A program made the translations under genes and the position numbers. A stretch of DNA of 64,000 bases, taken from assembly GCA_964016885.1 (NCBI GenBank), contig OZ024746.1, positions 25,110,001 through 25,174,000 of the forward strand, in the 5' to 3' direction. The DNA is from Eledone cirrhosa (taxonomy: Eukaryota). Each line of letters begins with the position of its first letter. Position 1 is the first letter of the stretch. Of the stretch, positions 6,990-49,549 are shown piece after piece. Under the pieces are notes generated by a model that was given only the letters and a program-made list of their open reading frames with translations, was not told the origin of the DNA and did no database searches.

Positions 6990-9178
<2,189 letters not shown>

Positions 9179-18300: not shown

Positions 18301-18375
18301 GCGGATCATCATGTCGGACGTTGTTATGTTGTTGTGTATCTTTAGAGTGCCACGAACACTTACATTTTCCTGGTG

Positions 18376-19466
18376 ATGGACTCACAGTCCCCGCATAAAC
18401 ACAAACGAGCCAAAACACAGCATTTTAATCGGAAGGATGGGATAAAAAAAGAGGACGATGAGGAAGTTCTGGCCGCCACGGCAGCAACAGCCCCGTGTTT
18501 TGTGTGTGGGGCACTGGCGGTAGAGCATTTTATTGACACTAAGTCGACAAACAATATAAATAAACCACCAACAGATCTTACATCCCAGGCGAGAAATATT
18601 TGTTCCGTATGTAGGGATTTCTACCGTCACAGTACCATAGGGGATGCACACCTGGATTATGTCTGTGTTACTCAGGGTCAGATTAACAGACGGATATCAT
18701 TGAGGAACTCGAGTTTATTGACTTCGTCGAAATCTCCAGTTTCTGATTTGTGTACAATTAAAGCAGATGCTGTGAATAAATGTCGTTCTTGTTGGTACCT
18801 CAAATGCATCTCTTTTGGACTGAATGAAATTCAGGAAGTTATAGATGTTAGCCAACCCGAATCAGACCAACCTCCGAACAACACCACCAACAATAACAAC
18901 AACAAGGGAGATCCTAGCGACGATACGTGTATAGGGACTTCAGTTCCCATCAAAAGCGATTCACAGTCGTCATCGGGAAAGGAGTCCAATAATTCCAATT
19001 CAACTGCCTCTTTAAATGTAAGTTCGAGTCCTAGTGTGGTTAACAAAAATAAACAAAAACAACGCCATCCACAAGATCAACCCATACGGTTAGACATTTC
19101 CGAAAATACAGCCATCTCTCTAACAAAACCGAAACAATCCACGGTTCAGAAGCAATTATTAGCATCCACCCGGATGGATAATTCCCAGTCTACTAAAACC
19201 TCAGGCAAAGGAAATGAGCGAACGATTCCCACAGTTGTATCATCCGAGCTAGCTTCTTCGCAACACGCACAAGGGAAATTGCTAAAGGTTTTAAGTCAGC
19301 CGCAAAAATCGGCGAAACAGTTAAAAGCAGTCGTTGGAACACAAGTGATAAAAAAAACTAGCAATGTTCAACGACAAACGAAAACGTCTGTTTCAAATCC
19401 GACGAAAAGTCCCGTTAAAGGAAGGGACACTAGTAGCAGTCAACTTTCTTCAAAATATTCACAAAA
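18376..19466 (+). CDS. Multi-DBD nuclear-receptor-finger gene, coding exon 1 (contains loop-expanded DBD1)
   Basis: ATG at 18376. ORF has CFVC...CSVC...CVTQ...C...CRSCWYLKC..GL. Donor GTAAGT at 19467, phase 2, matches the phase of the exon 2 acceptor. Confidence 0.8.
18496..18822 (+). other. DBD1 (degenerate NR zinc finger, insertions in both finger loops)
   Basis: All 8 Zn-ligand Cys plus the terminal KC..G are present, with long insertions; P-box CSVCRD. Confidence 0.65.
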
Positions 19467-19558
19467 GTAAGTCTTTACTTAACATTTGTACCTTGTACCT
19501 CTCTATAAACACACAGTCACACACACACATAAACACACACATATATATATATATATAT

Positions 19559-19620
<62 letters not shown>

Positions 19621-20055
19621 AGTCAACGAGTAAAAACAACACAGGAGAACAATACAGTACAATGTTCTATATTATTTGGACGTGTTTAGAATACAGTAGT
19701 ATTTAAAACAAGCAAGCATTAACTGAACGAGCACTCAATACTGGTGGATAGGGTGCAGAAATTTATTTTCCAAGTAGAAATCTTCAAAGTTTCAGCATAG
19801 TGGCTTCATCATACATATATTGAAGTGTACTTCTATAATCACACAGTCACACACACATGTATATATATACATGTGTGGTGTAAAGTGGTGTGTTTTATGC
19901 ATGAGCACTCAATACATTTGAGCAGAATATTGCCCCCTTTTCTTGAGAAAACAGAACTATATATATATATACACACACACACAGCTATCAAGAAATAAGA
20001 ATAATTTTTAAAAGCTCACATTTTTAGCAAAGTTGATGATGTGTGTATAGATCTT

Positions 20056-20099
<44 letters not shown>

Positions 20100-20523
20100 T
20101 AAACACAGGCAGATATGTACACACCCAAATATTTGTTTTTATACCAACAACCATAGCAGTAAACTAAAGGATGAAAGAAGTGTCAAGCCAACATGCTTGC
20201 CCGACCTGCTAAAAATAGCAGCCAAATTTCCCTTAAATCGTACCCTATTGTCACAAACAGGAAATGACATATTAGACAATGTTAATGATCACACATCCCT
20301 AAAATGACGGGATGGTTACGACTGGTTGGGGATAAACACCAACTAACAAAAATATATGCTTAGTTGCATTACTGAGTTAAGTTACTGATTTCGTCGAATA
20401 CCTGACCCGATCGTAGCTCAAAAATCTATGTTAATTCTCTTTAATCTTGAACTTCAATAACACTGATAAGTATATATACATACCCAATGCTTTGAGTAAA
20501 CAGAAACCGTGTGGAAACCTGTC

Positions 20524-20568
<45 letters not shown>

Positions 20569-20698
20569 TTCCTGATGGTTTCTAATGAGTGAGACGGTTC
20601 TGGTCCTGTAGAATCTCATCTATATTAAAACTTTTATACTCTGCTATGTATTGAGTACCTTACTTACTGTGGTTACCTCCGATTCAACCCGGAATAAC

Positions 20699-20768
<70 letters not shown>

Positions 20769-21136
20769 CCATGATGAGTTTACACACACTCTGATTGCTT
20801 AGTACTTATAGTGTATTTAGTGGGATTCAACAGAGCTGAACAGATGAGGCGGATCTTCGTCCCACATCGCCGCCTGATGGAACGCTAATCTATATCACAG
20901 CCAACATTCCCCAGATATCTGTGAACTGTTTCCTTCTGTAGCTAGATTATAGGCCACTTGAGGTATTTTGAAAGTAAAATTTTGTTTCAAGAGTTTTAAC
21001 TTGATGCAGTTAATCGACAACTACATAAGATATACATATATATAAAAAATTAAGATGACAGAAAGAAGTTCATACATAGTTTAATTCTTGCAATTGTATC
21101 GATGCAAAGCTTTTCTTCAAACACATAACTAGACAA

Positions 21137-21225
<89 letters not shown>

Positions 21226-23394
21226 ACAACAAAAATAAAAACAAATGTTTTGTATGCACTTATCCAGTCCACTTACATGTTTAAAGTAAATTCATATATA
21301 TACATAATTGACCGACTCAGCAATGCAGGCCCAAACAGAGTAGGGGAGCATTCTCTGGTGTGCAGGAGTCCATGTGTCTGCTGCCTCATGGATTCTGTGG
21401 ACAGAATGGAGAAAACATTGCTCCCAAGGATGGCAAGGGAGACATGCTAGAATAGCCATTCCAACTCATGGACCTCGCTCCTGCGGGCAGCCAACTCCGC
21501 CTCGATAGTTAACATAGCCGGCCTCATAACAAGCTTTTCCCCTTTGCCCAATCATCTGCATACCCCCTCACCACCCATTGTCTTTCATTTCTTTTATCCA
21601 TGTCTTTCTTAGCCGTCTAGCTTCCTCCTCATTCATTTCAACCACTCTGCTCATCCAGTCATTTTCATCCTTCCTCAACACATAACTTAACCATCTCAAT
21701 CCATTTCGCTTCAAAACATCCATTACTGGCTTTGTTCTCATTATATTCTACAGTTTATTGTTTGTCTTCCTCACTCTCTCTGAGGGATATTCCACTCATC
21801 CATTGGACCATTCTCATTTCCATTCTGTCCAGCTTTCTCTGCTTCTCCACATTCATCATCTCTGTCTCATTTCCATAAATCATGGCACTTCTCATACATA
21901 CATCATACAAACACTTTTCCTTTCAGTTTCAGTGGCACTCCCCTCCTCATTAGCATGCCACTCTGTTCCTGGATTTCTTCCATGCTCTGTTCATTTGAGC
22001 TACTGTTATCTAGTCTGATCCACCTTCTCCCTTTGAGTAACTGTTATCTGATCTGATTCACCTTCTCCATTCAGTATATTTCGTAGGTAAAAAAAACATT
22101 TTCACATTTTCCATCTTCACATCATTCCTAAAATCCAGCTCAACATCCTCTCCATCTGTAGTCACCCCACCCCCTTACACACTACATTTTTTATGTACTC
22201 ACTCAGTACATATCATCAATCTAATCAAATTCACCCTTCCTGCAGATAACTACCTTCCATTTGTTATATGTGATAAACACACAAAACATGCACTGAATTA
22301 AAGACTCATAATACATGTAGGCAGCAAATTGGCTGAGTTATTAGAATGTCGGATAGAAAGCTTTGAGGGTATTCATTTTGGCTCTCTACTCTGAGTTCAA
22401 ATCCCATTGCAGTCATCTTTACCTTTCATCCATTCAAGGTCTATAAAAAAAAGTATCAGTCTAGTACTGGGGTCAATTCTTCCTCTATATCCCTTTCTCA
22501 CTTCCATTTTCTCACTTTCTATCCATCTCTGGAAGAAATATCTGCTGTGTTCAGACTTGAAGAGGAAATACTCTCCACCCGGTTTTAAAATATCCTAGAA
22601 GTGCCATATGTCTGTACAGCACCCATATGGCTCCCTCAGGTGTTACGAGACCAGATAGTATATTTATAGAGGTAATACAATGATTGTTATTAATGGTGGC
22701 TGTTTACTTTGAAGTTTAACCTACATCATTGATTTATGAAAACTGTTTTCATAAGCTAATAACGTCAGCAAAATTTCCTAGTAAACAAACACTCATCATC
22801 CTCTTCATCCTTTAATATTTGTCTTCCCCGTTAGCAAGGGCTGGTTTGGTCTTCACAGACCAAGTCAGTACTGAAGCAGAGCCACTGACTTTTCAGGTTG
22901 GCTGGACAACCTACTTCTTACATACATTCACACACTCTACCTAGTGCATTTTATTGTGGCATCGGCACTAAGGAGGTTGTCATGTCTTTGACACAGCTAA
23001 AGAGTCCTCCTGTCTTTTTGTTTGGCAGGTTTTCTACAGCTGGACACCCTATTTAATGAGTAGACATTGATCAAACCGCTGGAGCACTTATTGTCGAAAC
23101 TGATTGGGGTCAATTTCCTTTATTCACTATATAGACATAAGTGTTTCAAGGCCAATATTTCCGCTAAAGTAAGGGCTAGTTTGTGGGCCCTATGACAGTC
23201 TTCATACTCATCATGGGGTAGTATTTTATGGCTTTCGACAACCTTTTAGTCACCTTTTACAATGTAGCTATTCTCAACCAGATACAAATAGTAAATAGAG
23301 TAAATAAATATTTGTATTTATGTATGTTTATGTGTATTTCAATGTTTGTATTCAGTTAGCTTTTGCTTAATTCATTTCTATTTATTTATTACAG

Positions 23395-26300
23395 GAAAAC
23401 AAGTCCTGTGGGCATTGTTCTAACTCCCGAGGAATGCGTATGTCAAGTATGTGGTGACACAGCTTCTACTATCCATTATGGAGTACTCACGTGTCCAGAC
23501 TGCAAGCTATTCTATCGACTAAGCATACAGGACAGCTTTGCTGATGGCTACTACTGCAAACAGAAAACCCATGAAATAACAAAGAGAAACAGAGGCAAAT
23601 GTGAATACTGTTGGTACAAGAAATGCTGTAGAGCAGGAATGTCGAGGGATAAACCAGAGATTGGTGAGGCTGTTACTGTGATAAAAGTCGAGAACAAACT
23701 ACAGCAAGCAAAAACTGAAAAAACGAATCCCTTACTGAAAAAAGCCTCAGTGACGAAAGACCTAAATAAACAGACAAGCAAGGCCCCACAGCAAACAACA
23801 GAGCCTCAGAAAGTACCTCCTCCGCCCAAAAAAGATCTCAATTTATGTAAAGTGTGTGAAGATCGGGCTTTTAAGAAACACTATGGCATCTTAGCCTGTC
23901 CAGAGTGTGAAGTTTTCTTTAAAATGAGTATCCTTGATGATTTCTACGAAGGCTATTTTTGCAGGATTAAAAAATGCAAGGTGAATCGTTTTTGTCGAAG
24001 TAACTGTGAATATTGTTGGTACCAGAAATGCCTGCTTAGCGGTATGCAGAAAGATGGTAGCCAACTGGAAGAAGATAACAGCAGTCGTAATGAAGTTGTT
24101 TCATTGACAACAACACAACAAACGTTAAAGCCGGTTTGTAGCAGCATTGAAATAAAAGATGAAGAAGAAAAAGAAACAGAAGCATCAGTAACGTTAAACA
24201 ATATCAAGAAATGTAGCAAAGATAGCAAGGACTGTGGGAAGATTATCAGTAGCAACAAGACCAATGACAACCTTAGCAGTAAAACTGCAAACAAGACCAA
24301 CAACAACCTTAGCAGTAAAACAGTCAAAAACAGCAACAACAACCACCTTAGCATTAAAACAGTCAAAAACAGTAACAACAACAATAATGTCAATACTAAA
24401 ATACTAAACAACAGCAACAACAACAAGAGACTTGTCACTTCAACAGAATCAAAATCCACTGTAACTTCTGTGAAAAAAAGAAAGCCTGAAAGTATAGATG
24501 AATGCCTAGCTAGTTCTTCTAGACATCAGACCAACAGTAACCAAATCCCTAACAAACGTCCTAAAGCAGTTGGTAGTTTAGTAAGTAACATTCAGAGTAG
24601 TGCTAGTAACTGCTCGAGTGCACAACTGAACTCATCTCTAAACAGGAGTACAACTAGTACTTCTGCTGTCTTGTCATCAACAGCTTCATTCCAGTCTTTT
24701 TCGTCTTCATCTCATTCGTTAACATCATCATCACTGCCATCATCATTATCGTCGTCATTATTACCATCATTGTCATCATCATCATCTGTTTTATCCTTAT
24801 CATTATCCTCCTCGTCATCATCATTCACATCACAGAAACCAACCAATGTTATACCAATGCCAACGTCAGTTTCACATACAATAGTTACGTCAACAACAGT
24901 CACATTTTCGACACCCACTACTATGACATCAAAAATTCAGCCCAAATTAATGGCAAAGAAAAGTGTGGCACCCGCTAAAAGGAAAGTCTTGGATGACACC
25001 ACCACCACTAAGAACAACAACAAAGACTGCATCAGGCTTAATTCTGGTGTTAGTGCACATAACACGACATGTAAATTAATATCAACCCACGAAAAAGTTG
25101 TAACGACTAAGGAAGATTTTGTGAAAAATACCAGTGTTAATTCTGACTACAGAACTGATAAAAACAGTCATAGCAGTAGTGGTAGTAGTAGTAGTGGTAA
25201 CAGTAGCAGACTAAAGAAACCTTCTGTTTCTATAGCTGTCAGCACCTGCATTAATAAACCTTATGATGTAATGGCAATGAAAAGTAGCAAATTGACTAGT
25301 TTGGTTGCTGTGTCGGACAGTCGTAAGAACGATGGCAACAGTGGTAAGTGTACATCTACTACTATTACTACCAAAGGATTCATCAATCCCTTCCATTCTA
25401 CACTAAACACAAACATCTGTACTGTATGCGGTGATCAGGCTTCTGTTGTGAACTACGGAGTACTAACCTGTCCAGATTGTCGCATATTTTTCCAGATGTG
25501 TGTACAAGATGGTTTTGCTGCTGGTTTGAGCTGTTCCAAAAAACAACGGAATTGCTCAATAACCAAACTAAACCGGGAGAGCTGTGAATTCTGTTGGTAT
25601 AAGAAATGCCTTGCTGTTGGAATGCAGACTGACCAAATACTGAAGATGACGCCAACCTGTGATCGTTTTACTTTCTCTTTGCCTATAACACCATTGTCAT
25701 CAACTCAATTAGTGACTACCACAAGTAATTCTACAAGCCCAACAGCAATCTGTTTGGTGAGCTCTTTAGAGCGAGCTAAAAATTCCAGAAATATAAAATA
25801 TTCTTCTGTGTTACCTCCACCCTTTCAAAATGAAGAATTATGTGTTGTTTGTAGCGCACCTTTTGCAGAGATTTATTCTGGTGCAAAGGTGTGTCCAGAA
25901 TGTAAGAACTTTTGTGAAGAAAGTGCAGATTCAAAAATATGTTCTAAGTATGTCTGCGAGCAGACACAAAGCTGTACCATTGCCAATAGTAATTTGCCAC
26001 CAAAGGATCGGTGCAGCTATTGTTGGCATCAGAAATGTGTACAATGTGATTTGCTCAGTAAAGAAACAAATATATCAAGAGATTCACCCAGTTTGGAGAA
26101 GCAGGAAAAGAAAGACCGAATTCCTGACCCTGTTTTGGATAATCTAGTTTTCCGAGAATCGGTGGATATATACAGTGCTGTGTTGGACAACATCCTTCAA
26201 GATAAAACAAGTCCATCTCACACAGACAGTGAAATTATTGAACAATACTTTGATGAAAATACCCCAGACAATCAAATTTGTGAACTACCAAGTTTGATGG

Positions 26301-29300
26301 AGAGTATGTTTGAATCTTTAACTAAATCTTCTGAAGAAATAGAATTGATGCAGAAGAAATTTGAACGACTAAAAATGGAGAAGGAACGTGTTTGTGCTTT
26401 AAAGAAACAAAATGAACAAAATCAACCACCTATCACTTTGCCTGGTGCCGTAACGACAGACTGTGCATCGAAAGTAACCAGGCGTGTACTCCTTAACAGT
26501 AATGACACCCAGGTGAAGGAAAGTGGTTTAGCAATAAAAGACAGCCATAATAAACCAACACCCGAAGCCATGATATACCCGCCCTCTTATTTGTCTTCTA
26601 AAAGTTCCAAAACTGATTCCCTGTCTGACAACTCAATTCAAAAGTGTGATTCATCCCTTCTTAGTTTGGATTGGGAAAGAAAAGCAAATGAGAGATGTAA
26701 CTATTCGGAGAAAGACAGTTTTACTTCAATTGCAATGAAGGATTGTTCAATGGTAAAAGTAACTAATGAAGTTCCACAGAATATTTTTGACAGCTCAGAT
26801 GACATAACACCCGTGTCTGAATCTGTGCCCTTCATACCCATACCAGCAGCTGGAGAAAAACAGGTGAAAAAAATAGTTTTCAGGTCTGTGTTAGATCGAT
26901 GTGAAGAGGAAGATATATCAGAAAACTTTTCATCAGATATTGAACGATGTCATTTGGAACACGGAGAGCGAGAAACTACTCACCAAAAGTTAAATGAGCT
27001 TCAATTGAAGAAGGACAATGTGGAAGAAAAGCTGCAAATGCTACAAAAGAACATTGAGAAAGAACGGAAAAAGCTCCTAACTCTTCAAAAAGAACGGAAA
27101 CGAGCAGCGAAAATTTGTAAGTCCCTGGAATCTTCTAATCCATTATCTTTGGATCCGAAAATGCCACAACTAGAACCTGAATCTGAAAATATATTGCGAC
27201 CATCAAATATTGATCTTGTTAAACAGAAAGAACTGGAAACCAATGATTTTTCTATGATTGAGGTCAGTAGCCCAGTTGTAACAGAAGAGACAGACTCTGA
27301 GAAATTATGTCGAGTATGTGGAGATAGAGCTCCTGGAGTTCTCTATGGAGTGTGGACATGTCTGAAATGTAGTGTGTTCTTCCGCCAGAGTCTAGACAAA
27401 CAGATTTCCAGCCAGTATACTTGCCGAGATGGCAACTGTTACATCGACAAAACTAACCGAGGGATCTGTAGATATTGTTGGTACCAGAAATGTTTGGTTG
27501 TTGGTATGTCGAAACAAGAAAAGAGAATTGTTCCAATCATATCCCCAGTGGCTTCTCCAAATACTGGTCAACAGGATCAAAGTAGAACTGGTATGTTCCA
27601 CGAAGACAATGACCAACATCAGATCAAAGAAACCGAGATGGAGATTATGCAGAATGTATTCCCAGGTGATAAAGGACCATTAGCAAAAGATCTTACAACT
27701 GAAATATGTGAAGAAATACATGAAGAGATTGGAAATGTGGAAGAGGAACTTTGTGATATGTCTGATTTCAAGACAAGATCCAAAGGTAATAACAACTGTT
27801 CGGAGACAATTTTAGAAATAAAAATGTCCCAAACATCTACAAGTGAATCAACAAACACATCTTCTTTGGTTCCAGAATCTTCAAACAACACAGCGTTTGT
27901 CAATAATAACAATCAGGTTACTGACTCAGGATGTTCTGTTGATTTGGCCGATTCATTTCCTCCTCAAAAAGCTAAATGTGATTCCAATAACTCTTCCCTC
28001 TCTGCTGTCACAGATACGAATATATCTAATGAAGATGTTACTACAGCAACAGGGCCAAAAGGTCAAAATGATGTCTCTGTTCAATATGTCAGCTACATGG
28101 ACAATGACACTTCTTTGAATTCAAACTCTGAAAGTATGCCAGTAGTAACCTCAACTGATGTCACCACAGAAATACCAGTTGCAAACACCAAAACAACTTT
28201 GTCAGATTCTGACCAGACTTTGGATATACAAAAAGCACCAACGTTCCGGAGAATCTTACCTGAAAGCCTTAGTACATCAGTTGATCCATCTGTTGTCACA
28301 GAGGTCATTCCGGAGCCTTTATGGAATTCTGTTGATACTGAAATTGTCCAAAAGAAATCTGGTGATTCTGTCGATGATAGTGAAGGTAGTGCTGATAGAG
28401 TGACACCTGTAGATACCCTTGATTCAACTGGAACGATACATTGTGAGGAAACAGTTGATAATACCATTCCAGAGACTTTGAGAAATTTTACTGATAAATC
28501 TGTTATTACAGAAATTATTCCAAGTTCTTCAAGAAATTCTGTAAATTCTATGATTCGAGACTCCAATTGTGACTCTCCTGAGGCCCCTGTTGGCAAAGAA
28601 ATTATACCAGGAGCACTGTCTCAATTTATTGATAAACAGTCTCTTAATCCTATGGTACTGCCAGAACCTTCTGAGACCACTTCTGAATTTGCTGGGAACT
28701 CTGATAATGAAAGTTCTGTGTCAGATGGTAACCAGATGAAAGAAGCTAACGCTGACTACTCCATGTCAACCAGCCAAAACATTTCTTATAGATCTCGAAT
28801 GTTACCTGAAAAACCTTCTTTCACTATATTAAAAAGAACAACCTTTATGGCAAAGCAGAAAACCACCAGATCTGTTGATATGCCTTCTTTGTCTTTCCGT
28901 TACATGGTTAAACGTTGTTCTCCAAAACATATCACTAACCAAATGCAGCGCCGGATCAAGAAGTCAGTTCAAATGATTGGAAAAGCTAAGCTGAAAACTC
29001 CATTTTCAAAAAATACACCCCCAACCTCTTCACATCATGCTGCACTAAGAGAATATGAGTTTGATGATGATGATAGTGATGATGAACATTTACAACATTC
29101 TTCATATAAAGCACACAGTAGTGTGAAAACATCTAGAAAGATGATGAAGAAAAAAGCCAATTTAAAGACAGTATTGAAAAGGAATTTAGCATCTACCCCT
29201 GTGTGTAAACAACATCAACACCAGAAGAACACTTCAAAGTTTATTTCTACTGTTACCAAAACTGCTCAAAAAATTCCCTCCAAAAATAAGGGTTCATTGA

Positions 29301-32151
29301 AGGATACAAATTTAAAGATGGCACTGACAAAACCACTGCGTAAACGAGGCCGTCCACGGAAGATACAACCAACACTGGCCAACACTGAAATAGCAGTATC
29401 AAGTGAACTATCTCTGAACAATTCTGTTTGTGAAGAAGATAGAGAACAGCTCTTGAGTCCACCAGAGAACACCACTGAAATTTTATCTGTCATGCCTTCT
29501 GTTAATACTGGAGTCACTGAATTCAGTAAAAGAAACAAAATTAAGAATAAAGAAGACAGTGTGGATAACAATAGCTTGTGTAATGTCTGCGGTGATGTGT
29601 CACATGGAAAACATTATGGTATTGTGTCTTGCTCTAGCTGTCGGTCCTTCTTTTCACACATTACCGATTCCAAAACTAGCAAGAAATTTGATGTATGTAA
29701 TAAGTCATGTGTAATCAACAGTGAGACACGTCGATTCTGTCGGTACTGTTGGCTTCAGAAGTGTCTAGAGGCAGGAATGGTGAGAGGTTCCAGCAGAAGA
29801 GGTCGTCCACCAAAAGTTCGACTACAGACTAACCAAGCTGAAACTGTAACAAGCAATAACAATGAACTTTCCAGCGACCAAACTGAGACAAATAATTCAG
29901 AAACAACACATCCAGTACTCCATAAGGAGTCGGCCCAGAATGAAAGTATTGAGAATAATGACAATAATAATGACCTGTTTATTAACAACAATGATATCAG
30001 TACTGAAAATGATCAAGCTGATAGTATGGATGTGTCATCTGATGTGATGAAAGACAGGGACAATGATGATGATGAGGATGATGAGGAGGAGGAGGAGGAA
30101 GGGGAAATGAATGTGAAAGAAAGGCCTTCAGGAAGTTCAACACAAGCTGCAATATCAGATGCTGAGGAATCTAATGTAACAAACTTAGAAGAAATGTCTA
30201 ACAGTGGTTTAATTTCTCAAGAGAAGATACCATGTCAGATAAATAGAGAGGAGTCAACAGCCATTGATCAATCATCTATAGTTTGTATTAATTTAGATAG
30301 TAATTTAAATAACAGTAACATAAGAACTTCCACTGATTCAGAATCAATGGCTGCTGAAAAAGACTCTGATTCACCTGTAATTATTGAAGGTGTTCTAGAG
30401 CAGAGTGACAACGATAAAAATGATGGTGATAATGGTCAGAATCCTAGTTCAGCTAGCAGTGAAGAATGTTTCTGTAAAGTATGTGGTGATTTGGCCTCAG
30501 GAATTCACTTTGGTGTAGAAACTTGCTGGTCATGTACTATCTTCTTTAAGCAGAGTACCGACTCACGGACAACCAAAAAATACAAGTGTCATAACAAAAA
30601 CTGTTGTGTCACACCTGATAACTATGAACGTTGTTCTTATTGTTGGTTCCAAAAGTGTTTGCTTGTTGGTATGTCGAAGATGTTAATTCCTAGAAATCAA
30701 AGCCAAAAAGGAAAAGGTCAGTTCTTGGAGAACTATGTTTCAAACACAAACCAAAGCATCTCTTCAGGAACCCACCAGGAAAAGAGTGATAAACAATTGC
30801 CTATAGTTGTGACAACTTCAAACATAGTGAGTACATCACACAACACTTTGGTAACAGCCACACCACTGACATCTGTCGCAGCCACCATCAGTAGTACAAA
30901 CACTACAGTTTCTGATGCAACTTGTACAACATATGTTATGTCTCCTTCTAATAGAGAAGTTACTGCAGTTAGTACATTTAATCCTAGAAGTCAAACTGTC
31001 TCAGTAATTACCACAACACCATTAAAGACCAATGCAAACATTAATACTTCCATCACACTTGATACAGTTTCTTTGCAACCAAAATTATCGAGTAATAAAC
31101 AACCTACAGATTCTGTAGACACTGTTCAAAATAATCTTCAAACTTCACCTGTGAAATCTGTGTTAGTTGCTCCCAAGACTAGCTTAAATCAGATGCAGAC
31201 ACCAACTCATACTGAACAGATGTGCAGTATTTGTGATGACACTGCAATTGGTGTTCGCTATGGTGTGCAGACATGTCGTAATTGTTTGTGTTTCTTTCGA
31301 ACAGTACTAAATGGGGGAACCCCAATTGAAAAGGACCATGCAAATGGTAACTGTTATATTAATAAAGCCAATACTAACCGGTGTCGATTCTGTTGGTTCC
31401 AGAAATGTCTTTCAGTTGGAATGAGTGACAAGGTACAGATGAAAAAACAGCAAGGATTAATGGCACCAAGTAGACTGCCAACATCTGGGCAGGATTGTAA
31501 TACCAACAGTCCCAATATATGTGACCAAACCGATCCTGTATCAAGTTCTAGTAGTAGCAGTCCAGACATTATTACCACACTTCCAGCTAATGGTCTGTCT
31601 CTGACAACATCTTCACAAGTACAAATGTTACCAATTACATCCAGTCAATCAGGGTCGACCGGTACTACAACATCTCAGCCAAAGGATCTGAGTCCAAACA
31701 TGAGGACAACAACAAATGAATCCTCATCTGTGACCAGCCATAGTAAAGATGTTGTTAAGTTATGTAAAGTATGTGGTGATGTCTCCTTTGTGTCTCATTA
31801 TGGCATTGCATCTTGTTTAAATTGCAGTGTCTTTTTCCGTCGCAGTTTGGACAAACGATTGCACCGCACATATAAATGTCTCAACAAAGACTGTTTAATT
31901 AGTCGTGCCAGTCGCAGTCGCTGTTATTACTGCTGGTTCCAGAAGTGTTTGGGAGTCGGCATGTCCTACAAGGTTAAGCGTAAAATGCGCCATCAGAAAG
32001 AGAAATCAGTAGATCCAGTGGAAGTATCTCAGTCACCTAAGCACCTATCAACTCCTAATCAGAATGCTGCCAACCAAAATTCCAAGAACAACAGCAGTCA
32101 AAACAATACTCAGTTAATCTCAAGTCACAATAAAAGTCTTGTGACTGATAG
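23395..32151 (+). CDS. Multi-DBD gene, giant exon 2 (8,757 nt; DBD2-DBD10, two AT-hooks, coiled coils, S/T/N-rich linkers)
   Basis: Stop-free 2,930-codon ORF. Acceptor tttattacAG at 23393-94 and donor GTAAGT at 32152, both phase 2. Nine C4-C4 NR zinc-finger units. Confidence 0.93.
23441..24046 (+). other. DBD2 (23441-23641) and DBD3 (23846-24046)
   Basis: P-boxes CPDCKL and CPECEV. DBD2 has His in place of the second D-box Cys (CKQKTH). Confidence 0.9.
25418..26053 (+). other. DBD4 (25418-25624) and DBD5 (25841-26053)
   Basis: P-boxes CPDCRI and CPECKN. Confidence 0.88.
27308..27508 (+). other. DBD6
   Basis: CRVCGDRAPGVLYGVWTCLKCSVFFRQS...CRYCWYQKCLVVGM. Confidence 0.9.
29339..29362 (+). 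other. AT-hook motif RKRGRPRK
   Basis: Canonical RGRP core with basic flanks. Confidence 0.8.
29579..29815 (+). other. DBD7 followed by AT-hook RRGRPPK
   Basis: P-box CSSCRS; short C-x3-C D-box (CNKSC). Confidence 0.88.
30473..31963 (+). other. DBD8 (30473-30673), DBD9 (31223-31423), DBD10 (31763-31963)
   Basis: P-boxes CWSCTI, CRNCLC and CLNCSV. DBD9 has His in place of the first D-box Cys (DHANGNC). Confidence 0.9.
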
Positions 32152-33231
32152 GTAAGTAATAATCTAACATTTTTTCACATTTTCCTTGTGGAGATAGATC
32201 TATCTTTTCTGACTCACTGATTATGTTGTTAGAGCTCACATCAATGTAGGTTTCTTGGGTATTTTAATGATAGGGGCATCAATCCTATTATGTTTTGGTT
32301 GTTATCACTCACACTGCTGTAGGTTTAGGTAATCATTCAGAAGGTTGTATCTGAAAAGAAGTTTCTTGGATATCTTAATGATCAGGGCTCCACCTCCATC
32401 CCACTAGTTCTATCATTGTTACAACTGACACCTATGTAGGTTTAGCTAACCTCCTATGATGCATCTCATAGGAGGTTTCTTTGATGTTTTAATGATAGTA
32501 ATTTAACATATGGTTTTTATATAAAATTATGTTGGAAGATTATAATTTAAATTGGAATCCTTTAAAAAGAGTGGTTGTGTTTCATAGAACAAGAGGTGGT
32601 TGTGGTTAGGTTGGTATCAAAAGAGGTAAGTGACAAAAGATATGATTAATTCTGATTGAAAAGATTTTAATTTGGTGACACGAAAAAAATGAACAATCAG
32701 TCCACTCTGTAAGGTGGTTGTGTTGGTGACACAAGAAAAAAGCACCCAGTTCACTCTGTATTGGTCTCCAAGCCTAACTTATCTCATAATGTGACAACCT
32801 GTCTAACCCATGCAAGCATGGAAAAATAGACATTAAATGATGATGTGTTAGTATAGTTGAATATACATTATTTTCATTACTATTTTGATTGTGGTTGAAA
32901 AGGTTTTTGTATCGCTATGTTAGTTTCATTGTCATCATCATGTATTTTCCATGCTTGTATGGGTTAGATGGGCTGTCATGTTATGAGGCTAGATAGATCA
33001 GACGATTACATCTTGTTCATACGATCTGTTTTTGGTCTGGTTACCTACAATTGGATGCCCTTCCTAATAGAGTGGACTATGTGCTTTTTCTCACGGCTTT
33101 ACCACCCTACCTTGCAGGATGGGTTGAGTTCTTTTATTGTGGCACCAGCTCTTTGATATATATCTTTTTATTGTTATTTTGATTGTAGTTGGAAAGATTT
33201 GAATAAATATTTTTCTCATTTGTATTTCTAG

Positions 33232-33589
33232 TGAGCATGATCAGCTGTCTCGTAGATTCTCTCGACGTAGTGGCAACATACTCTGTAAAGTGTGTGGTGA
33301 CGAGGCCTCTACAGTACATGCAGGGGTACTCACATGTCACCCTTGTCGATCTTTCTTTAAACGAAGTGTAAAGAACAGCATCAACCGGAAGTATTCCTGT
33401 GATGATAAAAACTGCTCTATAACTAAGAACAACAAGAAAAGCTGTGATTACTGCCGCTATCGAAAATGTCTGGCTCTTGGAATGGCCAAAAATACTATGA
33501 AGCACAACAGTCAACCTTTAAAAGATAAAACAGATAGCCAAAAGATGGTTGAGTCTGCTAGCAATGTACAGATTGAATCTGTTAAGAGG
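33232..33589 (+). CDS. Multi-DBD gene exon 3 (DBD11)
   Basis: Acceptor tttctAG (33230-31, phase 2). CKVCGDEASTVHAGVLTCHPCRSFFKRS...CDYCRYRKCLALGM. Donor GTAATG at 33590, phase 0. Confidence 0.88.
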
Positions 33590-33652
33590 GTAATGTATAT
33601 TTTGGTACTCCTTATATATTTTAACAGTTATATAGAACATTATTTTGCAGAG

Positions 33653-33828
33653 GGCAGTATCGGTAGAGGGTCGGACGCCATGCTTTGCAGCAACGAGTTT
33701 CGGCCCTTTATAGTCTGAGTTCAAATCCCGCCGAGGTTAAATTTGCCTTTCATCCTTATGGGGTCGATAAAATAAAGTACCAGTAATGTACTGGGATAAT
33801 TGCTGGCCTTGTGCCAAAAGTAGAAATA
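33653..33828 (+). mobile_element. SINE family A (more copies ~34482-34662, 45290-45498, 50222-50405)
   Basis: TSD attattttgcagag; near-identical to the other copies. Confidence 0.85.
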
Positions 33829-34809
33829 ATTATTTTGCAGAGTTGTTAGAACATAGGGAAAAATGCCTATGTGAACCCAGTTTCGAATAGATACACTGTA
33901 TCTCTATGTTATAAGAGGCAACTAAAAGGGTTTGCATCAGGAAAGACAGTGTGGAAAAATGGACATAAAAACAATGATTGGGATGATCTATCAACATGGA
34001 GGGTATGTGAAGGTTTGACAAGACTGAAGAGTCCTCTCATCCTTTTTAGGCATGGTTTCTAGGTGCTCTTGGTTTCTGGGTGCTCATGGTTTCTGGGTGC
34101 TCTTCAGCAAAACTGAAGAGTCTCCACCCTTTTTCACATGGTTTCTAAGACTGGATGCCCCTCCTAACCCAAACAACTTAACATAGTGTAATGGATGCAT
34201 TTTATCGTAGCACCAATGCTAGTGTTACATTGTGTACTACAAGAGTAGCCTTTTTGATAGTTAGCTACCTGAAACTGCTGCTTGTTCTGATACAAAACTG
34301 GTCATTTTAAAGTGTTGATATTTCATCATAATTTTATGTAATGGAAAAGTTAATTACTTTATGAAAGTCCTCCGAATGTTTCATTATTTTCAGAATTATC
34401 TAGTCAAAACCTGTTGCCACACTGCCGGTAGAATACACACACACACAAACAGCCACAAAAAATAACTATATGTATTCATCAGCGGCAGTATTGGTAGAGG
34501 GTCGGACGCCATGCTTTGACGCATAGAGTTACGGCCCTTGCCATTCTGAGTTCAAATCCCGCCGAGGTTAACTTTGCCTTTCATCCTTACAGGGTCGATA
34601 AAATAAAGTACCAGTAATACACTGGGTAATTGCTGGCCTTGTGCCTAACGTAGAAACAATTATCATTTCCATGTTAGCATGGGTTAGACGGGTTGTCCTA
34701 TTTGAGGCAAGTAAGGTCAGGTGACCATGTCTTGCTCATACAGAACTGTTTCTATGGCTGGATGCCCTTCCTAACGCCAAGTGGTACTTCCATGCTACCT
34801 TCTTTTCAG

Positions 34810-35235
34810 TATTAGTGAGAGCGAGTACTTCATGGACACACATCTCTCCAATGATATCACAGTTTTCCCTGACACATTGTCTCGCAATCCTGAACACTTC
34901 ATACCTTAGGTCCTCACATTGCCGAACATGCTTAAATTTTTTAGTTTCTGCTTCTCTTACAAGGTATACTTGTCATCTAGCTTCTCTCCTAGCCTCCTGG
35001 TCATGTTCTCTACTTCCCCCATCCCGCCATTCTTTCCATGCCTTAACTGTCTCCTCTATCTTACTGTTCTATCACCAAGTCACTCTCCTTCTCTCTAGAG
35101 ACCTGCTCCAACCACAGATTTCGTTTGTTGCCTTCAGTAGGCTCCTCTATATTGTATGTCCCTATTTGCTCTTCCTTACTGTCAAAAGCCTCGTGCAACA
35201 TACCTCTAAATTAGTGAAATTCTTTTTTTAAAGTC
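34810..35235 (-). pseudogene. Degraded RTE-like LINE ORF fragment (other remnants ~21600-22010 on -, ~50950-51330 on +)
   Basis: Reverse complement translates to ..ATNEICGWS..AWKEW..GGSRE..EVFRIARQ..DIIGEMCV, with stops. Confidence 0.55.
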
Positions 35236-35589
35236 TATCATGATCACTTTCATTCTCACATTATAAACACCCATCTCTCTTTCACACACACTCTCTCTCT
35301 CTTGACAACAACTTTTCACTCCCCCTCTTTTCACCTACATATATGTTGTGACAGACAGGCAGAGGGAGAAACAGGTTCTCTTTTATAATATAGATTGAAA
35401 TAAGAGTCCTCACTACTCTATTTAACATGTATAAAACTTATTTTTTTCAGCTCTTGTTTTCTGACCATGTAAAATGGTTGTGTACAGGTGTAACTAAGTT
35501 TGAAGTTGTTTGTAACCTTTTAATAAATTTAAAAATTGTAATTTTATTAATAATGTTCTAATCTGTGGTATTAATCTTTATTTTTATAG

Positions 35590-35918
35590 AACCATTGCAA
35601 AGTCTGCGGCTTAGAAGCATCTGGGATTCATTATGGTGTTTTGACCTGTGGTAACTGTCGAGTGTTTTTCTTCAAGAGCTGTGAACAACAGAGTTTTAAA
35701 AACTATCAGTGTTCTTTGAAAAATTGTAACATATATAGTAATGGTCAAGTGAAGTGCTCCTATTGCCACTACCAAAAGTGTTTGAGGGTTGGTATGTCAA
35801 GAGATTGCATTAAACGAGGAAGACCACGCAAAGTAGATGAGAATATGTCCAAGGAAATGCCAGAACTGAAGAAACAGAAAACTAACAAGAATAACACTAC
35901 TAATAAACCTAAAAATAA
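35590..35918 (+). CDS. Multi-DBD gene exon 4 (DBD12 + AT-hook)
   Basis: Acceptor ttttatAG, phase 0. NHCKVCGLEASGIHYGVLTCGNC...QKCLRVGMSRDCIKRGRPRK. Donor GTAAGT at 35919, phase 2. Confidence 0.88.
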
Positions 35919-36058
35919 GTAAGTTTTATTTACTTTATTTCACTGACAATTTCAAAGTCTAACACAAAATATTAGTTTAGAAAATAAAGTACCAGTAATG
36001 CACTGGGTAATTGCTAGCCTTGTGCCTAAAGTAGAAACAATTATAATTTGTAAGTGAT

Positions 36059-36350
36059 ATAGCTGTCTCAGTGGCCTAGTTGGAGGAATCATAGACCGTG
36101 GTGATCTTGGTCTGAAGTTCGATCCTGGTCGGGTGTAGTGTTCCCGGTAAAACCTTTACAGGGCGGTGAATTGGCAGTATCGGTAGAGGGTCGGACGCCA
36201 TGCTTTGACGCATTGAGTTACGGCCCTTGCCATTCTGAGTTCAAATCCCGCCGAGGTTAACTTTGCCTTTCATCCTTACGGGGTAGATAAAATAAAGTAC
36301 CAGTAATACACTGGGTAATTACTGGCCTTGTGCCAAAAGTAGAAACAATT
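36059..36350 (+). mobile_element. Composite SINE: extra tRNA-like head fused to a family A body
   Basis: 16-bp TSD ataatttgtaagtgat encloses both parts; A-box tggcctagttgg and B-box gttcgatcc in the head. Confidence 0.7.
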
Positions 36351-36526
36351 ATAATTTGTAAGTGATGAATTGGCAGAATCATTTAAGCGTTGGATTAAAA
36401 TACCTGTGTGGCTCTCTGTGTTCTGAATTCAAATCTCACTGACATCAGCCATTGCCTTTCATCCTTTTAAGGTCAATGAATAAAATACCATTCCAATACT
36501 GGGGTTGGTTCTCTCACCTCTCAACT

Positions 36527-36569
<43 letters not shown>

Positions 36570-36920
36570 CATTATCGTTTAACGTCCATCTTCCACGCTT
36601 GCATGGATATATATACATTTAAACAACAACAGAAGGCCGGACTGGAAAATTTGCTTACTAAATTTAATTTCGTGAAAACACTATTCATATTTTGATGGCC
36701 CAGCTTTATCATCCGACTGGAGATAGAAAAAAATAGAAGATAGAAAATTCGATTTGGGGACAGCCTGCCAATATGGTGTTATATTGATATTAGATAGTCC
36801 CTGGTGACCGTTTGCTATCGATTTGGGAAATTTGAACTCCAACCGTTAAGCGCCAGAAATACCACCATGTATTTAGCATTATGTGAAGGCAGGCGACTCT
36901 AAGCTTCTTTAAGTTATCTC

Positions 36921-36960
<40 letters not shown>

Positions 36961-36963
<3 letters not shown>

Positions 36964-37395
36964 GTATAAAATTCCCTTGGGAGCTTTATAAGTATTGAAA
37001 TTTCCGTTGGAAACAGAAAAGGTCATAGAAGTGAAGAGTGCTCTATGTAAGTATCAGAGCAAAATCAATACTTATAAAGCTCCCAAGGGAATTTTATACA
37101 TTAAATTTTGCTCTGATACTTACATAGAGCACTCTTCACTTCTATGACCTTTTCTGTTTCCAACGGAAATTTCAATATTTATAAAGCTCCCAAGGGAATT
37201 TTATACATTAAATTTTGCTCTGATACTTACATAGAGCACTCTTCACTTCTATGACCTTTTCTGTTTCCAACGGAAATTTCAATACTTATAAAGCTCCCAA
37301 GGGAATTTTATACATTAAATTTTGCTCTGATACTTACATAGAGCACTCTTCACTTCTATGACCTTTTCTGTTTCCAACGGAAATTTCAATACTTA
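36961..37395. repeat. One inverted plus three tandem copies of a 107-bp unit between (TA)n tracts
   Basis: Units start at 37066, 37173 and 37280; 36961-37065 is a permuted reverse complement. Confidence 0.85.
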
Positions 37396-37685
37396 TATAT
37401 ATATATATGAAAAAATGGGGAGAAGAATACTGCAGGTTGCACATGGATAACATGTTATAAAATGAGTCCCTCATCAGTGATTTGCCGACGATCATAGATA
37501 TTTCATTGCATTAAAAATCACAATCATAGATATTTCATTGCATTATATCATCATTTCATCATTTCATTTTACGTCCACTTTTCCCTGCTTGCAAGGGTGG
37601 GACTGTGTGTGTCTGATGGTAGCTATGATGCTTCCATAGGCGGTATGCCAGTTGAGCACTCTATGTTCTTACAGAGCAGAGTGTG

Positions 37686-38300
37686 ATATAATATAAAACG
37701 AAAAATCAGTGATGCATCTGAACTAAATTTATTGTGTGTTATTGTTTCGCTGGCAGACAGCTCGAGACACGATTATTGTGTGGATCTGTCTGATTCTGAA
37801 TCTGCAGGTTCGTCGGACACTTCTAATAATTTCGGAATCAATTTTCTCAGGTGAGAAAATTTGATCCGACAAACCTGCAGATCCAGAATCAGACAGATCC
37901 ACACAATGAGAAAATTTGATCCGAAATTATTAGAAGTGTCCGACGAACCTGCAGATCCAGAATCAGACAGATCCACACAATGATCGTGTCTCGAGCTGTC
38001 TGCTGGCGAAACAATTGTAACACACAATAAATTGAGTTCAGATGCATCACTGATTTTTCGTTTTATATTATATATATATATAAAAAGAAAATTTTCGCTC
38101 TACACGGCTGAATACAATAAATGTAATCTGAGTTTTTCGAATATTAATAATAACATTCGATTCGTTTGCAATTATGCAAACAAGAGCAAGAATGAAGAGT
38201 TCATTCTACTGACATGGCTATAAAATTGAGGCTTGTTTGCATAATTGCAAACGAATTGAATGTTATTATTAATATTCGAAAAACTCAGATTACATTTATA
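37686..38300. repeat. Two adjacent fold-back inverted repeats
   Basis: Arms of about 160 bp (37686-38075) and about 65 bp (38118-38298). Confidence 0.85.
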
Positions 38301-38657
38301 TATATATATATATAGAAATAGCCGTCGAAACGGCTTGAGCTCTGCCGTCGGGGACATACTTTTTCTTATATATATATAAATCATCGTCATCATTTAACAT
38401 CCAAGGGTTGGACGGGTTCACATAGATCAAGTCAGTACTGAAGCATGGCTACTGACATCCCAGACAGGCCAAGGGGTCTGTATCCCACTTATATATATAC
38501 TCAATTATTTCCAAAATGATTTGAAACATATAGGCAGTGTTTTTCATTAGAAGTATGGATTTCATTTAAAACATGTGGAAAAGAGATATATTTATATTGA
38601 GTTTCCTCATAATTATTGTATTCTGTTTATATAATCTTCTTTGTTCTTTTTTTTTAG

Positions 38658-38960
38658 CAACTCAGCTGAAAACTCACAGTTGGTGAAGGAAAAACAAAAG
38701 GCTCCTTGTGTTGTTTGTTCTGATGTGTCCAGTGAGATTTACTGTGGGCTGTGGGTTTGCATTAGCTGTCGTAATTTCTTCCAGTACAGTATAGATAATG
38801 AGCGCAACGAGGGCTACAGATGCAAGTACAATAATCACTGCATTGTGAACAAAACTAGTCGGGTGTTATGTCATTACTGCCGCTTCAAAAAATGTCTAAT
38901 TGTTGGCATGATGAAAGAACAAGCTTACCAAGAATACAACAAACGGAAATGTTCTGAAAA
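38658..38960 (+). CDS. Multi-DBD gene exon 5 (DBD13)
   Basis: Acceptor (T)nAG, phase 2. PCVVCSD...CISCRNFF...CHYCRFKKCLIVGM. Donor GTAAGT at 38961, phase 2. Confidence 0.88.
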
Positions 38961-40005
38961 GTAAGTTGTTTAGCCTCTTTGATACCAAGCTGCTTTAAAC
39001 CACTTTTGGTTCTTTAATACAAAACTGTCATGAAGGGTTTCATAATTTAATCATAATCACCAGCTTAATACCGAGAAAGTTATATTACTAAATCACTCCA
39101 AATTCTTGATTATATTCAAAATTATTGGAAAATTATAGGCAGTGTATTTCATTAGAAATATGGTTATGAAAGGGTTATGTGTTTCAATGCTGTATTGTAC
39201 AATAGTATATATCTATGGTTTTTTTTTCCAACATTGTGTGTATGTGTGTATATATATATATACACACACAGATGTAAACCCCTTTTCAATGCAATACTAC
39301 AGAATATATCTATAGATTTTAGCCAACACTATATATAAAATGAATGTCATGTGACAGTCATTTCCAACAAAGCAGAGATGAGGTGATGATAATCATAACC
39401 AGGACTGACTTAGTCAATCTCAGTTGTCCTTAAGCTTCTCAAGGGGCTTCTGTCATCTAGGTCTTCCTGGGTCAGAGGAAAGACAATGGGACTTCTTTAT
39501 ATTTGTGGGTTTGTGTGGTTACCATTGTCTCCTTGTTGAGTACATCCACCCATGTAGACAAATGTTGTTGTTTTTTTGTCATGTTAGGGTGTCCACCTTT
39601 TTCTCACTCTTTATTTTATATTCGTTCTTTGTTTTCAATTTGTTGTTCTATATTAGTATGGAATTAATTAAAGAGCAGGTTTTAGAAGACTCCTCACTTG
39701 CATCAATGTACTGAAAATCCTCCTAGTGCCAGTGTCACAATAAAATACACCCTGTATACTCTGTAAAGTGGTTGGTGATAGGAAAAGCATCCATCTATAG
39801 AAAGCATGTCAAAACTGCAATATATGTAAGCTAAACATGGTCCCCAGCCTGTCTCAGATTACAGTAGCTTTAACTAAGACCTAACTTCATCTGTGATGAC
39901 CCATCTAGCCCATGCCAGCATAATAAAATGAATGTTAAATGATGATGAATGTAAGTATATATGAAAATGATTATGTATACTTTTAATTTAATTTTAATTT
40001 TTCAG

Positions 40006-40462
40006 TTCAACTGTCAACAATCATGAAAGGATAAAGCTGGCATGTAACCCCCGGCACTTTCCATGTAAAGTTTGTGGAGATCTTGCATCTGGTATACATT
40101 ATGGCCACTTCATTTGCGAAGGCTGTAAAGGGTTCTATCAACGGAGCATACGCAAGAAAATGGTTTATTTGTGCATCAGCAAAAATTGTATCATCAATAA
40201 GTTTACAAGGACACGCTGTGCCTATTGCAGGCTGCAAAAATGTTTGACTCTTGGCATGTCAAAAGAAGCTTGTAGGAAGGGTCGGCGAACAAAGGAAAAG
40301 CAAATGAGATTGATGAACCAACCCCGTGAGGTAGTTAATATATATGAGGAATATAGGAATCCAAACCCTACAGCTAAAGAGTGGATCAATACAGCACCAC
40401 GAAAAGAGCCATCAAGAGAACCAGTGGAATATATTGAAGACGCTGATCAGCCTAAAATGTAA
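40006..40462 (+). CDS. Multi-DBD gene exon 6 (DBD14, canonical CEGCKG P-box); ends either at TAA 40460-62 or at a splice donor at 40459
   Basis: Acceptor ttttcAG, phase 2. [75 protein letters not shown]. Confidence 0.88.
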
Positions 40463-42422: not shown

Positions 42423-42543
42423 GGATATAGCTTTATTTACAATTTCAAATCCAATAATTGTCTCTACTTTAGGCACAAGGCCAGCAATTACCCAGTGCAT
42501 TACTGGTACTTTATTTTATCGACATCCAATAATGTTGGCTTGA
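42423..42543 (+). CDS. Possible short terminal exon 7 of the multi-DBD gene
   Basis: Acceptor ctatttttctAG fits the phase-2 donor at 40459. Open to TGA at 42541-43, followed by AT-rich sequence with AATAAA at 43087. No homology support. Confidence 0.25.
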
Positions 42544-46695: not shown

Positions 46696-47151
46696 TCTAA
46701 ACTATAATAAAGTAAAGAGTGCGGGACTGCGGACGGTTTATTTCTTTTAATCCAGTTAGTAAAATAAGTTAGATTACTTTGAATAAGTAATGAATGAATA
46801 TTACATAATGTATCTACTAAATTTCGTAGCTGTTGATTAAACATATTTTATTCCTTATTTAAAGATTCACTTTAAAATTTTCAAATGTCAACACTTCTGG
46901 TTAACGATCGCTTAAATAAACATTCATATATTTCCGTCACTAATTTTCTCCTAATGCAGTTTAAATATAATATCGTCTTTTTTTAATGTATAATGGATTA
47001 CGTTACTGATTACATAAGAGACTGTAACGTAGTCTGCGTTCAATTTCTGTGTATATTGTCAATTACGATTTTATTTGTTGTATCAAATCTACATGTATAT
47101 ATACTCGCGTATAATATACGCGAGTATATATAAGGGTGGTTTTTCTGCTAG
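46696..47151 (+). mobile_element. Non-autonomous Helitron (family 2)
   Basis: A|TCTAAACTATAATAAAG ... gggtggtttttctgCTAG|T; homologous to the inverted copy at 58806-59486. Confidence 0.78.
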
Positions 47152-48067: not shown

Positions 48068-48107
<40 letters not shown>

Positions 48108-49170: not shown

Positions 49171-49209
<39 letters not shown>

Positions 49210-49420
49210 TCTACTATACGTATAACCTCATATACAAGCACACATAACAAACACACACACACACACGTATATATATATATATACATACACATCACACGTA
49301 CATACATATACACATCTAGCCATCTCTCAATAGATCTATCCATCCATTCTCTCTCTCCACACACGCACGCCGTGTTCGTAGAACTGTATTAATCAATAGA
49401 GTAGCACATCCATTGTGACA

Positions 49421-49500: not shown

Positions 49501-49549
49501 GTAAGTCGCTTTCTAAAAACATTCATTCCATCTTCATATTATCAACCGC

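Follow-up and report, generated by a model that had tools for sequence, protein, structure and literature searches.

A coleoid selenocysteine lyase locus predicted to encode, besides the free enzyme, a long form with fourteen nuclear-receptor DNA-binding domains

Nuclear receptors (NRs) of the NR0A/Knirps type have a single DNA-binding domain (DBD) and no other folded domain, together with a Knirps box or CtBP-binding motif. Here we describe a locus in a 64,000-nt stretch of the Eledone cirrhosa genome (GCA_964016885.1, contig OZ024746.1, positions 25,110,001 to 25,174,000, forward strand; hereafter 'the window', numbered from its first letter), in which an array of NR DBDs is read in frame into selenocysteine lyase (SCLY). 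Several described systems come close to it. The 2DBD-NRs of Wu and LoVerde have two DBDs 17-22 aa apart and one ligand-binding domain (LBD), with the P-P modules EACKK-EGCKG, LPCKS-EGCKK or EACKS-EGCKG (PMC10497141). In the bacterial MocR/GabR regulators (a GntR subfamily), a linker connects the DBD at the N-terminus to a C-terminal pyridoxal 5'-phosphate (PLP) aminotransferase-like domain, which dimerises and senses effectors (PMC5320631). SCLY itself is a PLP-dependent homodimer that has been seen in mammalian nuclei by immunofluorescence, where its role is unknown (PMC6770646), and human UBE2F-SCLY is listed as a read-through candidate for nonsense-mediated mRNA decay (NMD; PMC12748216, PMC5455099). 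As regards molluscs, the available text of the 2DBD-NR review does not mention Octopus or cephalopods (PMC10497141), that of a cephalopod C2H2 paper names nuclear receptors in a reference only (PMC12513265), and that of the Lymnaea genome report covers 2DBD and NR0 genes only (PMC11589774).

One open frame from the array into the enzyme

We hold with high confidence that the coleoid SCLY locus gives rise to two products: a 447-aa enzyme from an internal start and, from an upstream start, a 4,184-aa protein in which 14 NR DBDs precede SCLY. On the plus strand of the window (as are all exons and protein features given here), six coding exons join in frame through GT-AG introns of phases 2, 2, 0, 2 and 2, exactly as had been predicted. 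Exon 1 (18376-19466; 64% identical to the O. sinensis N-terminus, with a Sepia counterpart in P0245) holds a divergent DBD1, the 8,757-nt exon 2 (23395-32151) holds DBD2-DBD10, exons 3 (33232-33589), 4 (35590-35918) and 5 (38658-38960) hold DBD11, DBD12 (with an AT-hook) and DBD13 respectively, and exon 6 (40006-40458; 85-97% identical across coleoids) holds DBD14 (EGCKG P-box, NR1-like) followed by a hinge of about 70 aa that leads to SCLY. Six-frame translation by itself reveals an open frame of 2,931 codons (23360-32152) that encodes nine C4 double fingers, besides four smaller frames that each encode a single one.

The original prediction had ended the protein at 40462, at about 3,760 aa, and had taken SCLY for a separate downstream gene. 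The length is recovered when exon 6 is read into the TAA at 40460-40462 (3,764 aa), but the protein does not end there: the triplet sits inside the phase-2 splice donor of exon 6 (AT/GTAAGT, the slash marking the exon end; donor hexamer at 40459-40464). Of 872 stop triplets in the non-coding flank (40.5-54.5 kb), just 3 have this context. Across intron 6 (40459-54563, which skips the first exon of the short form), exon 6 joins SCLY exon 2 at 54564 in frame, and no stop follows until the SCLY terminator. With 40458 spliced to 54564 and the 12 SCLY exons from there on included, the long form comprises 18 coding exons (12,555 nt, 4,184 aa, no internal stop, all introns GT-AG), the last four of which lie just beyond the window. 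The same junction is present in P0001, P0003, P0006, P0389, P0007 and P0388, and the locus is single copy in the genome.

Within intron 6, an exon at 49421-49500 (50% match to the N-terminus of the O. bimaculoides short SCLY, P0005) ends in a phase-2 donor and, joined to SCLY exon 2, yields an open 447-aa product; it is the predicted alternative first coding exon and start of the ordinary enzyme. SCLY exon 2 (54564-54688) offers the phase-2 acceptor common to both isoforms and is followed by exons 3 (55802-55873), 4 (57691-57719), 5 (59504-59675, with the His-Asp selenium-specificity motif), 6 (60291-60418), 7 (61450-61608, with the DAAQ motif and the PLP lysine), 8 (62407-62513) and 9 (63174-63210), and by four exons past the window (L001; window-equivalent 64222-64305, 65234-65336, 65899-65974 and 71825-71996) that hold the catalytic Cys-His and the stop. 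The observed/expected CpG ratio (per 500 bp; window median 0.39) stays at about 0.8-1.3 round both starts and at 0.16-0.48 across most of the gene body, which marks a candidate upstream promoter at the long-form 5' end (17000-19500, ratio 0.79-1.27) and a candidate internal one at the short-form 5' end (48000-49500, ratio 1.03-1.14). Such a profile would fit two promoters above a methylated gene body, gene-body methylation in octopus being described as a mark of highly expressed genes (PMC9476566).

The enzyme part is a genuine SCLY. Pfam places PF00266 (Aminotran_5) at 3763-4158 of the fused protein P0003, and the C-terminal 420 aa are 47% identical to mouse SCLY. Orthology with SCLY rather than NFS1 is indicated by the PDB matches of P0007 (E 2e-133 for SCLY against 1e-55 for NFS1) and by the tree, and the P0007 model contains a confident SCLY domain (template-modelling score 0.92-0.94 to human 3GZC and rat 3A9X). 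Both the window and every coleoid form retain intact His-Asp, DAAQ, GHKF and Cys-His motifs, and equivalents of Asp146, Cys388 and His389 (residues named in PMC6770646) are present alongside the PLP lysine; no second SCLY copy was found in the genome.

The fusion recurs in other coleoids. Among proteins of 1,605-5,109 aa, exon 2 matched a single cluster, which has O. vulgaris CAI9724068.1 (zf-C4 and Aminotran_5) as its representative and O. sinensis XP_029638073.2 (4,182 aa) as a member. The DBD14-SCLY junction is identical in these two, in Argonauta GAB1611135.1 (four DBDs and SCLY) and in Sepia pharaonis CAE1274831.1 (eight zf-C4 stretches and SCLY; Sepia DBD1-2 lie in a separate gene model, whose contig equals that of Sepia SCLY in length), and five coleoid proteins hold the hinge at 69-73 aa with a conserved block directly after DBD14. 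Because gene models can be copied between species by homology, we give more weight to proteins from Logan: P0007 (685 aa, from a contig of 2,578 nt) takes in the exon-4 tail, DBD13, DBD14 and SCLY, P0388 (from a contig of 2,967 nt) takes in the exon-6 tail and SCLY, and P0273 has the same enzyme core as P0388 preceded by a short first exon. The contigs of P0007 and P0388, both from the squid/cuttlefish side, are intron-free, although the introns concerned span more than 35 kb in this genome, and spliced RNA would be their simplest source. Intron 6 also exists on the cuttlefish side, since P0390-P0392, which belong there, end in the same donor read-through. In the SCLY tree (Crassostrea left out), the window sequence groups with Octopus and Argonauta (support 100/99) and P0007 with Sepia (98/97). 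A DBD is present in 5 of the 124 SCLY-like proteins compared, all five coleoid, and absent from the other 119, which comprise plain SCLYs of bivalve, gastropod, chiton, brachiopod and deuterostome origin (with Nautilus outside the sample); one SCLY homologue comparison spanned proteins of 376-1,199 aa only. Among the plain forms, the Elysia marginata model P0291 bears an unrelated, basic and repetitive N-terminal extension of about 300 aa, a single model and possibly an annotation artefact.

Several observations weigh against the long form as we describe it. The three read runs of this genome (X1-X3, one sample) cover introns as DNA would; over exons 5 and 6 and SCLY exon 2 they agree with the sequence and show no other letters, which is uninformative on splicing, and the exon-6 splice is absent among the joints listed for these DNA-like runs. 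Exon 1 to SCLY is spanned by no single contig (exons 1-4 are linked through gene models), the library type of the intron-free contigs is not visible, and one model of O. vulgaris (P0002, 3,526 aa) breaks off behind exon 4, without SCLY. One may ask whether a free-standing 14-DBD protein is the main product after all and the SCLY join a low-level read-through that annotation pipelines have copied. Such a view can point to human UBE2F-SCLY as a precedent (PMC12748216, PMC5455099), to O. vulgaris protein names apparently taken from the O. sinensis record, to P0002, and to the termination of P0390-P0392 at the read-through stop. We consider it very improbable: octopods and decapodiforms share the position of the join and its reading frame, as seen in the models of four species and in two contigs free of introns, P0391 and P0392 begin at the first Met within exon 6, as expected of unspliced genomic contigs, and the TAA is in frame because any phase-2 GTAAGT donor yields such a stop, those of exons 1, 2, 4 and 5 (which share the hexamer) included.

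The DNA-binding domains, their linkers and their origin

Profile search with zf-C4 (PF00105) returns stretches distributed as 1+9+1+1+1+1 over the six exons, in agreement with the prediction. Thirteen of the 14 DBDs are full length, whereas DBD1 (18496-18822; eight Cys, two large loop insertions, predicted local distance difference test score, pLDDT, of 45 in its AlphaFold model) remains below the cut-off, with 19.3 bits against 21.1. DBD2-DBD10 lie in exon 2 at about 23438, 23843, 25415, 25841, 27302, 29576, 30470, 31217 and 31757. The absence of an LBD also stands: none of the 27 matches to PF00104 in this 3.0-Gb genome falls on the contig of the window (C6), a Pfam scan did not find the family in P0003, P0389, P0006 or P0007, and none of the 70 stop-to-stop frames of at least 55 aa at 40459-54563, inspected by eye, was LBD-like.

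DBD14 has RAR-alpha as its best PDB match (E 4e-29), and RAR and ROR are the best single-domain matches. In the recognition helices outside DBD14 the canonical Glu is gone and the Lys mostly so (the P-box of DBD13 reads ISCRN, for example). The D-box has C-x4-C spacing in 9 of 13 window DBDs, DBD14 included, in place of the canonical C-x5-C; among 254 DBDs with a canonical P-box, C-x4-C occurs in 7 only, all of them DBD14 orthologues. The one apparent x4 D-box among the other receptors of this genome (own_C3a) proved to be a pattern artefact of a C-x5-C box.

Across species the DBDs cluster by position, with decapodiform-side counterparts for DBD2, 3, 4, 7, 8, 9, 10, 11, 13 and 14; DBD5 and DBD6 fall in a gap between decapodiform models, and Sepia DBD12 is partial. 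Paralogous DBDs inside the window are just 26-60% identical. Identity to Sepia amounts to 77% in the DBDs (380/492), 62% in SCLY (253/409) and 35% in the linkers (343/985), and the Cys-to-His zinc-ligand swaps of DBD2 and DBD9 are common to octopods and decapodiforms. The domain count varies among coleoids, since a decapodiform-like fragment (P0126) has one additional DBD, of very divergent sequence, inserted after position 3 and before position 4.

The DBDs are spaced by low-complexity linkers of tens to hundreds of residues. All three predicted AT-hooks are present as RGRP motifs: one free-standing (29342-29362) and two in the C-terminal extensions of DBD7 (29798-29815) and DBD12 (35815-35832), a position in which NR1 receptors carry a minor-groove GR motif. 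Two putative coiled coils (26327-26413 and 26975-27103) have a heptad-like look and are conserved in O. sinensis, the second with a homodimer prediction score of 0.15. A further linker block with repeated E-I/V-I-P motifs (28238-28630) is near-invariant in stretches between the window and Sepia P0389; it has no Pfam match, its best score in an atlas search (0.78) is at most a lead, and it may constitute an undescribed interaction motif.

Most likely, SCLY acquired an upstream DBD exon of NR1 type ahead of the octopod/decapodiform split, and this exon was then duplicated in tandem. The best sign that the array may have grown from a DBD14-like ancestor is the shared C-x4-C D-box deletion. Monophyly of the array is neither rejected nor demonstrated by the approximately unbiased test (p 0.36), and the DBD trees comprise 68 columns. 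In the first tree (without WIN_1, Osin_1, SepiaN_1, Sepia_6 and Sepia_7), DBD2-13 separate from the rest with support of 87/93, two C. brenneri domains on long branches falling among them. In the second, from which the rows of C. brenneri, P0127 and P0126 and further redundant or long-branch ones were also left out, they separate with 87/90. DBD14 joins the first domains of 2DBD-NRs in one of the trees (80/83) and is unplaced among canonical DBDs in the other. The original prediction had also likened the array to multi-C2H2 proteins. This analogy is weak (long linkers in place of tandem packing, a single copy, and most positions kept since the octopod/decapodiform split), and an arms race with transposons, as for KRAB-ZNF proteins, was rejected on account of the single-copy state and slow evolution of the locus.

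What the long form may do

Our preferred reading, to which we give a probability of roughly one half, is that the long form binds DNA in coleoids, uses SCLY to dimerise and carries selenocysteine (Sec) lyase chemistry or sensing to chromatin. It starts from the open spliced frame, the conserved junction, the retained zinc ligands and the intact SCLY motifs, and its further steps are conditional. Since SCLY occupies the position of the LBD, it can supply a dimer interface and a small-molecule site as an LBD does; from this position and from its being a homodimer, we propose a nuclear dimer that would sense or turn over selenocysteine. The long form would be nuclear and DNA-bound, DBD14 would read AGGTCA-type half-sites, and DBD2-13 (with their altered recognition helices) and the AT-hooks would add other or low-specificity contacts, a role of the array as multivalent chromatin reader being plausible. 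The homodimeric SCLY would replace the LBD as dimerisation module, in long-long or long-short pairs, and its PLP site would bind or turn over selenocysteine at chromatin, whereby selenium/Sec status, or local selenide release, might be coupled to gene regulation. More doubtful is the narrower proposal of an NR-derived transcription factor with SCLY as its sensor, an animal counterpart of MocR that reads Sec or releases selenide and whose 28-finger dimer would bind and loop its targets.

This reading has to be set against a number of contrary points. Among the full-length DBDs, the EGCKG P-box is confined to DBD14 and missing from the other 12 of 13, and the recognition helix of DBD14 in this genome (40136-40144) has YQR, at a position that usually touches DNA, where all four orthologues examined have FRR. 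RGGTCA sites show no enrichment round the two starts (1.0 and 0.5 per kb, compared with 0.8), for which reason autoregulation through such sites was dropped, and no selenium-related target is known. The hinge is of low confidence in the P0007 model (pLDDT below 50 at residues 218-270), and for this reason the model supports no allosteric path. That the catalytic residues are intact does not show that the long form uses them, the exons in question being common to both isoforms.

The last two of these points, and the stronger conservation of the DBDs than of the enzyme, suit an alternative in which SCLY is a passenger or a dimer-only tail: the array would work as a chromatin factor to which selenium chemistry is irrelevant, SCLY providing just a 3' end, an NMD-safe frame and perhaps dimerisation, the modelled hinge being flexible and the active site kept for the short isoform. 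Because 11 junctions would follow a stop arising early, in SCLY exon 2, NMD avoidance alone could keep the frame. This alternative is possible, though we lean away from it: the hinge length and the block behind DBD14 have been kept in five coleoid proteins, and the read-through stop of the donor, together with poly(A)-like hexamers in intron 6 (from 41122 onward), would have made the shedding of SCLY easy, yet the splice is kept in both lineages.

A third account takes the array for a protein/RNA scaffold, or for a Cys/Zn-rich sink for metal and selenide (about 28 zinc sites) fed by the attached lyase. Zinc thiolates react with selenium compounds, the zinc ligands have been retained even via His substitution, the residues that canonically contact bases are missing from 12 of the 13 recognition helices, and a motif block outside the DBDs is conserved. 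On the other hand, recognition helices are kept in a position-specific manner between octopods and Sepia (DBD8, 10 and 11 at 85-90%, DBD14 at 92%), three AT-hooks and basic C-terminal extensions suit DNA binding, and a sink has no need of 14 distinct conserved sequences; we thus judge this account unlikely.

Should the long form work as in our preferred reading, it would constitute a direct route from selenium or amino-acid sensing to transcription in an animal, and a genomic innovation of coleoids that the labels 'SCLY' and 'uncharacterized' have concealed. It also offers a natural test for the nuclear role of SCLY in mammals (PMC6770646). Moreover, the 12 altered recognition helices, many of them conserved across coleoids, form a panel for the limits within which the DNA specificity of the NR fold can change.

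The last SCLY intron, past the window, harbors a long interspersed nuclear element (LINE)-type retrotransposon on the minus strand (L001:2297-6471), with a 925-codon open endonuclease and reverse-transcriptase frame and a 451-codon upstream frame. By eye, intron 4 contains a tandem triplication of about 120 bp and an inverted-repeat element (37000-37400 and 37700-38060). A dispersed intronic repeat of about 170 bp, resembling a short interspersed nuclear element, lies at 33655-33820, 34485-34660, 36170-36350 and 59215-59390, and inverted near 45350-45500 and 50250-50400, with very high read depth where reads mapped; a degenerate (AT)n microsatellite of about 2.4 kb occupies 6900-9300 (core GC 10-14%). 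Elsewhere in the genome, near-identical NR DBDs on different chromosomes (G000:C5:27146279 and C18:28142899) are similar enough in sequence to suggest a recent duplication of one receptor gene.

Comparison with known systems and other arrays

That the array goes beyond known architectures, as had been claimed, holds for its size, the next largest having 4-6 full DBDs; multi-DBD arrays as such do occur elsewhere. A profile search of 1.84 billion representatives gave, among the best 150 matches, further arrays (3-6 full DBDs each) from nematodes, from a mite and from ENA/Logan records; these 150 matches excluded the 4,000-aa forms, and 14 DBDs is the largest number seen rather than a proven maximum. 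The proteins CAL2035663.1 of Caenorhabditis brenneri (P0130, five NR DBDs), P0127 from ENA (six) and P0132 of Dinothrombium (three) resemble the coleoid array in having several diverged NR DBDs per chain. They differ from it in that PF00266 is present in none of the 10 non-fused multi-DBD proteins scanned, which have at most 6 full DBDs, and the DBDs of P0127 form a clade of their own. P0130, P0128, P0129, P0137 and P0008 have 4-5 NR DBDs and then a tail of about 250 aa without a Pfam match (similar by eye in four of the five), and may represent an undescribed multi-DBD receptor group; P0127, P0133, P0136, P0154 and P0132 are LBD-less arrays of 3-6 NR DBDs. NR-DBD arrays thus seem to have arisen several times. 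In the searches run, no NR with a metabolic enzyme in place of the LBD, or with 14 DBDs, was found outside the coleoid family, nor was a published description of this gene in the literature searched (supplements and most subscription journals lying outside it).

With canonical nuclear receptors the coleoid array shares the PF00105 double finger; it lacks the LBD and, in 9 of 13 window DBDs, the C-x5-C D-box. As in NR0A/Knirps-type proteins, NR DBDs occur without an LBD, but the coleoid protein has 14 of them and an Aminotran_5 enzyme where the LBD would sit. Like the 2DBD-NRs it has more than one NR DBD, and its last DBD carries the EGCKG P-box; unlike them it has 14 DBDs, no LBD, no EACKK, LPCKS or EACKS first P-box and spacers far above 17-22 aa. 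At starred support no grouping of its DBDs with 2DBD domains is seen, the two trees differing on DBD14 (with 2DBD first domains at 80/83 in one, unplaced in the other). Compared with SCLY enzymes, the long form contains a true SCLY and adds about 3,760 aa with the 14 DBDs. Human UBE2F-SCLY likewise has upstream exons spliced into SCLY, but whereas it is listed as an NMD candidate, the join described here keeps the reading frame and has been conserved among coleoids. The order of DBD, linker and C-terminal PLP domain recalls MocR/GabR; the DBDs are zinc fingers, however, and not a winged helix-turn-helix (Pfam detects zf-C4, Aminotran_5 and a sub-cut-off Beta_elim_lyase in the coleoid fused proteins, with no GntR domain among them), and the enzyme is a class V SCLY rather than one like aspartate aminotransferase, apparently active and shared with a free isoform. 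We would accordingly speak of analogy or convergence, and not of homology or membership. Databases already contain the sequences themselves, labelled 'uncharacterized' or 'SCLY'. Each of the two parts is known, and the function is one that we infer; the architecture that joins them is new.

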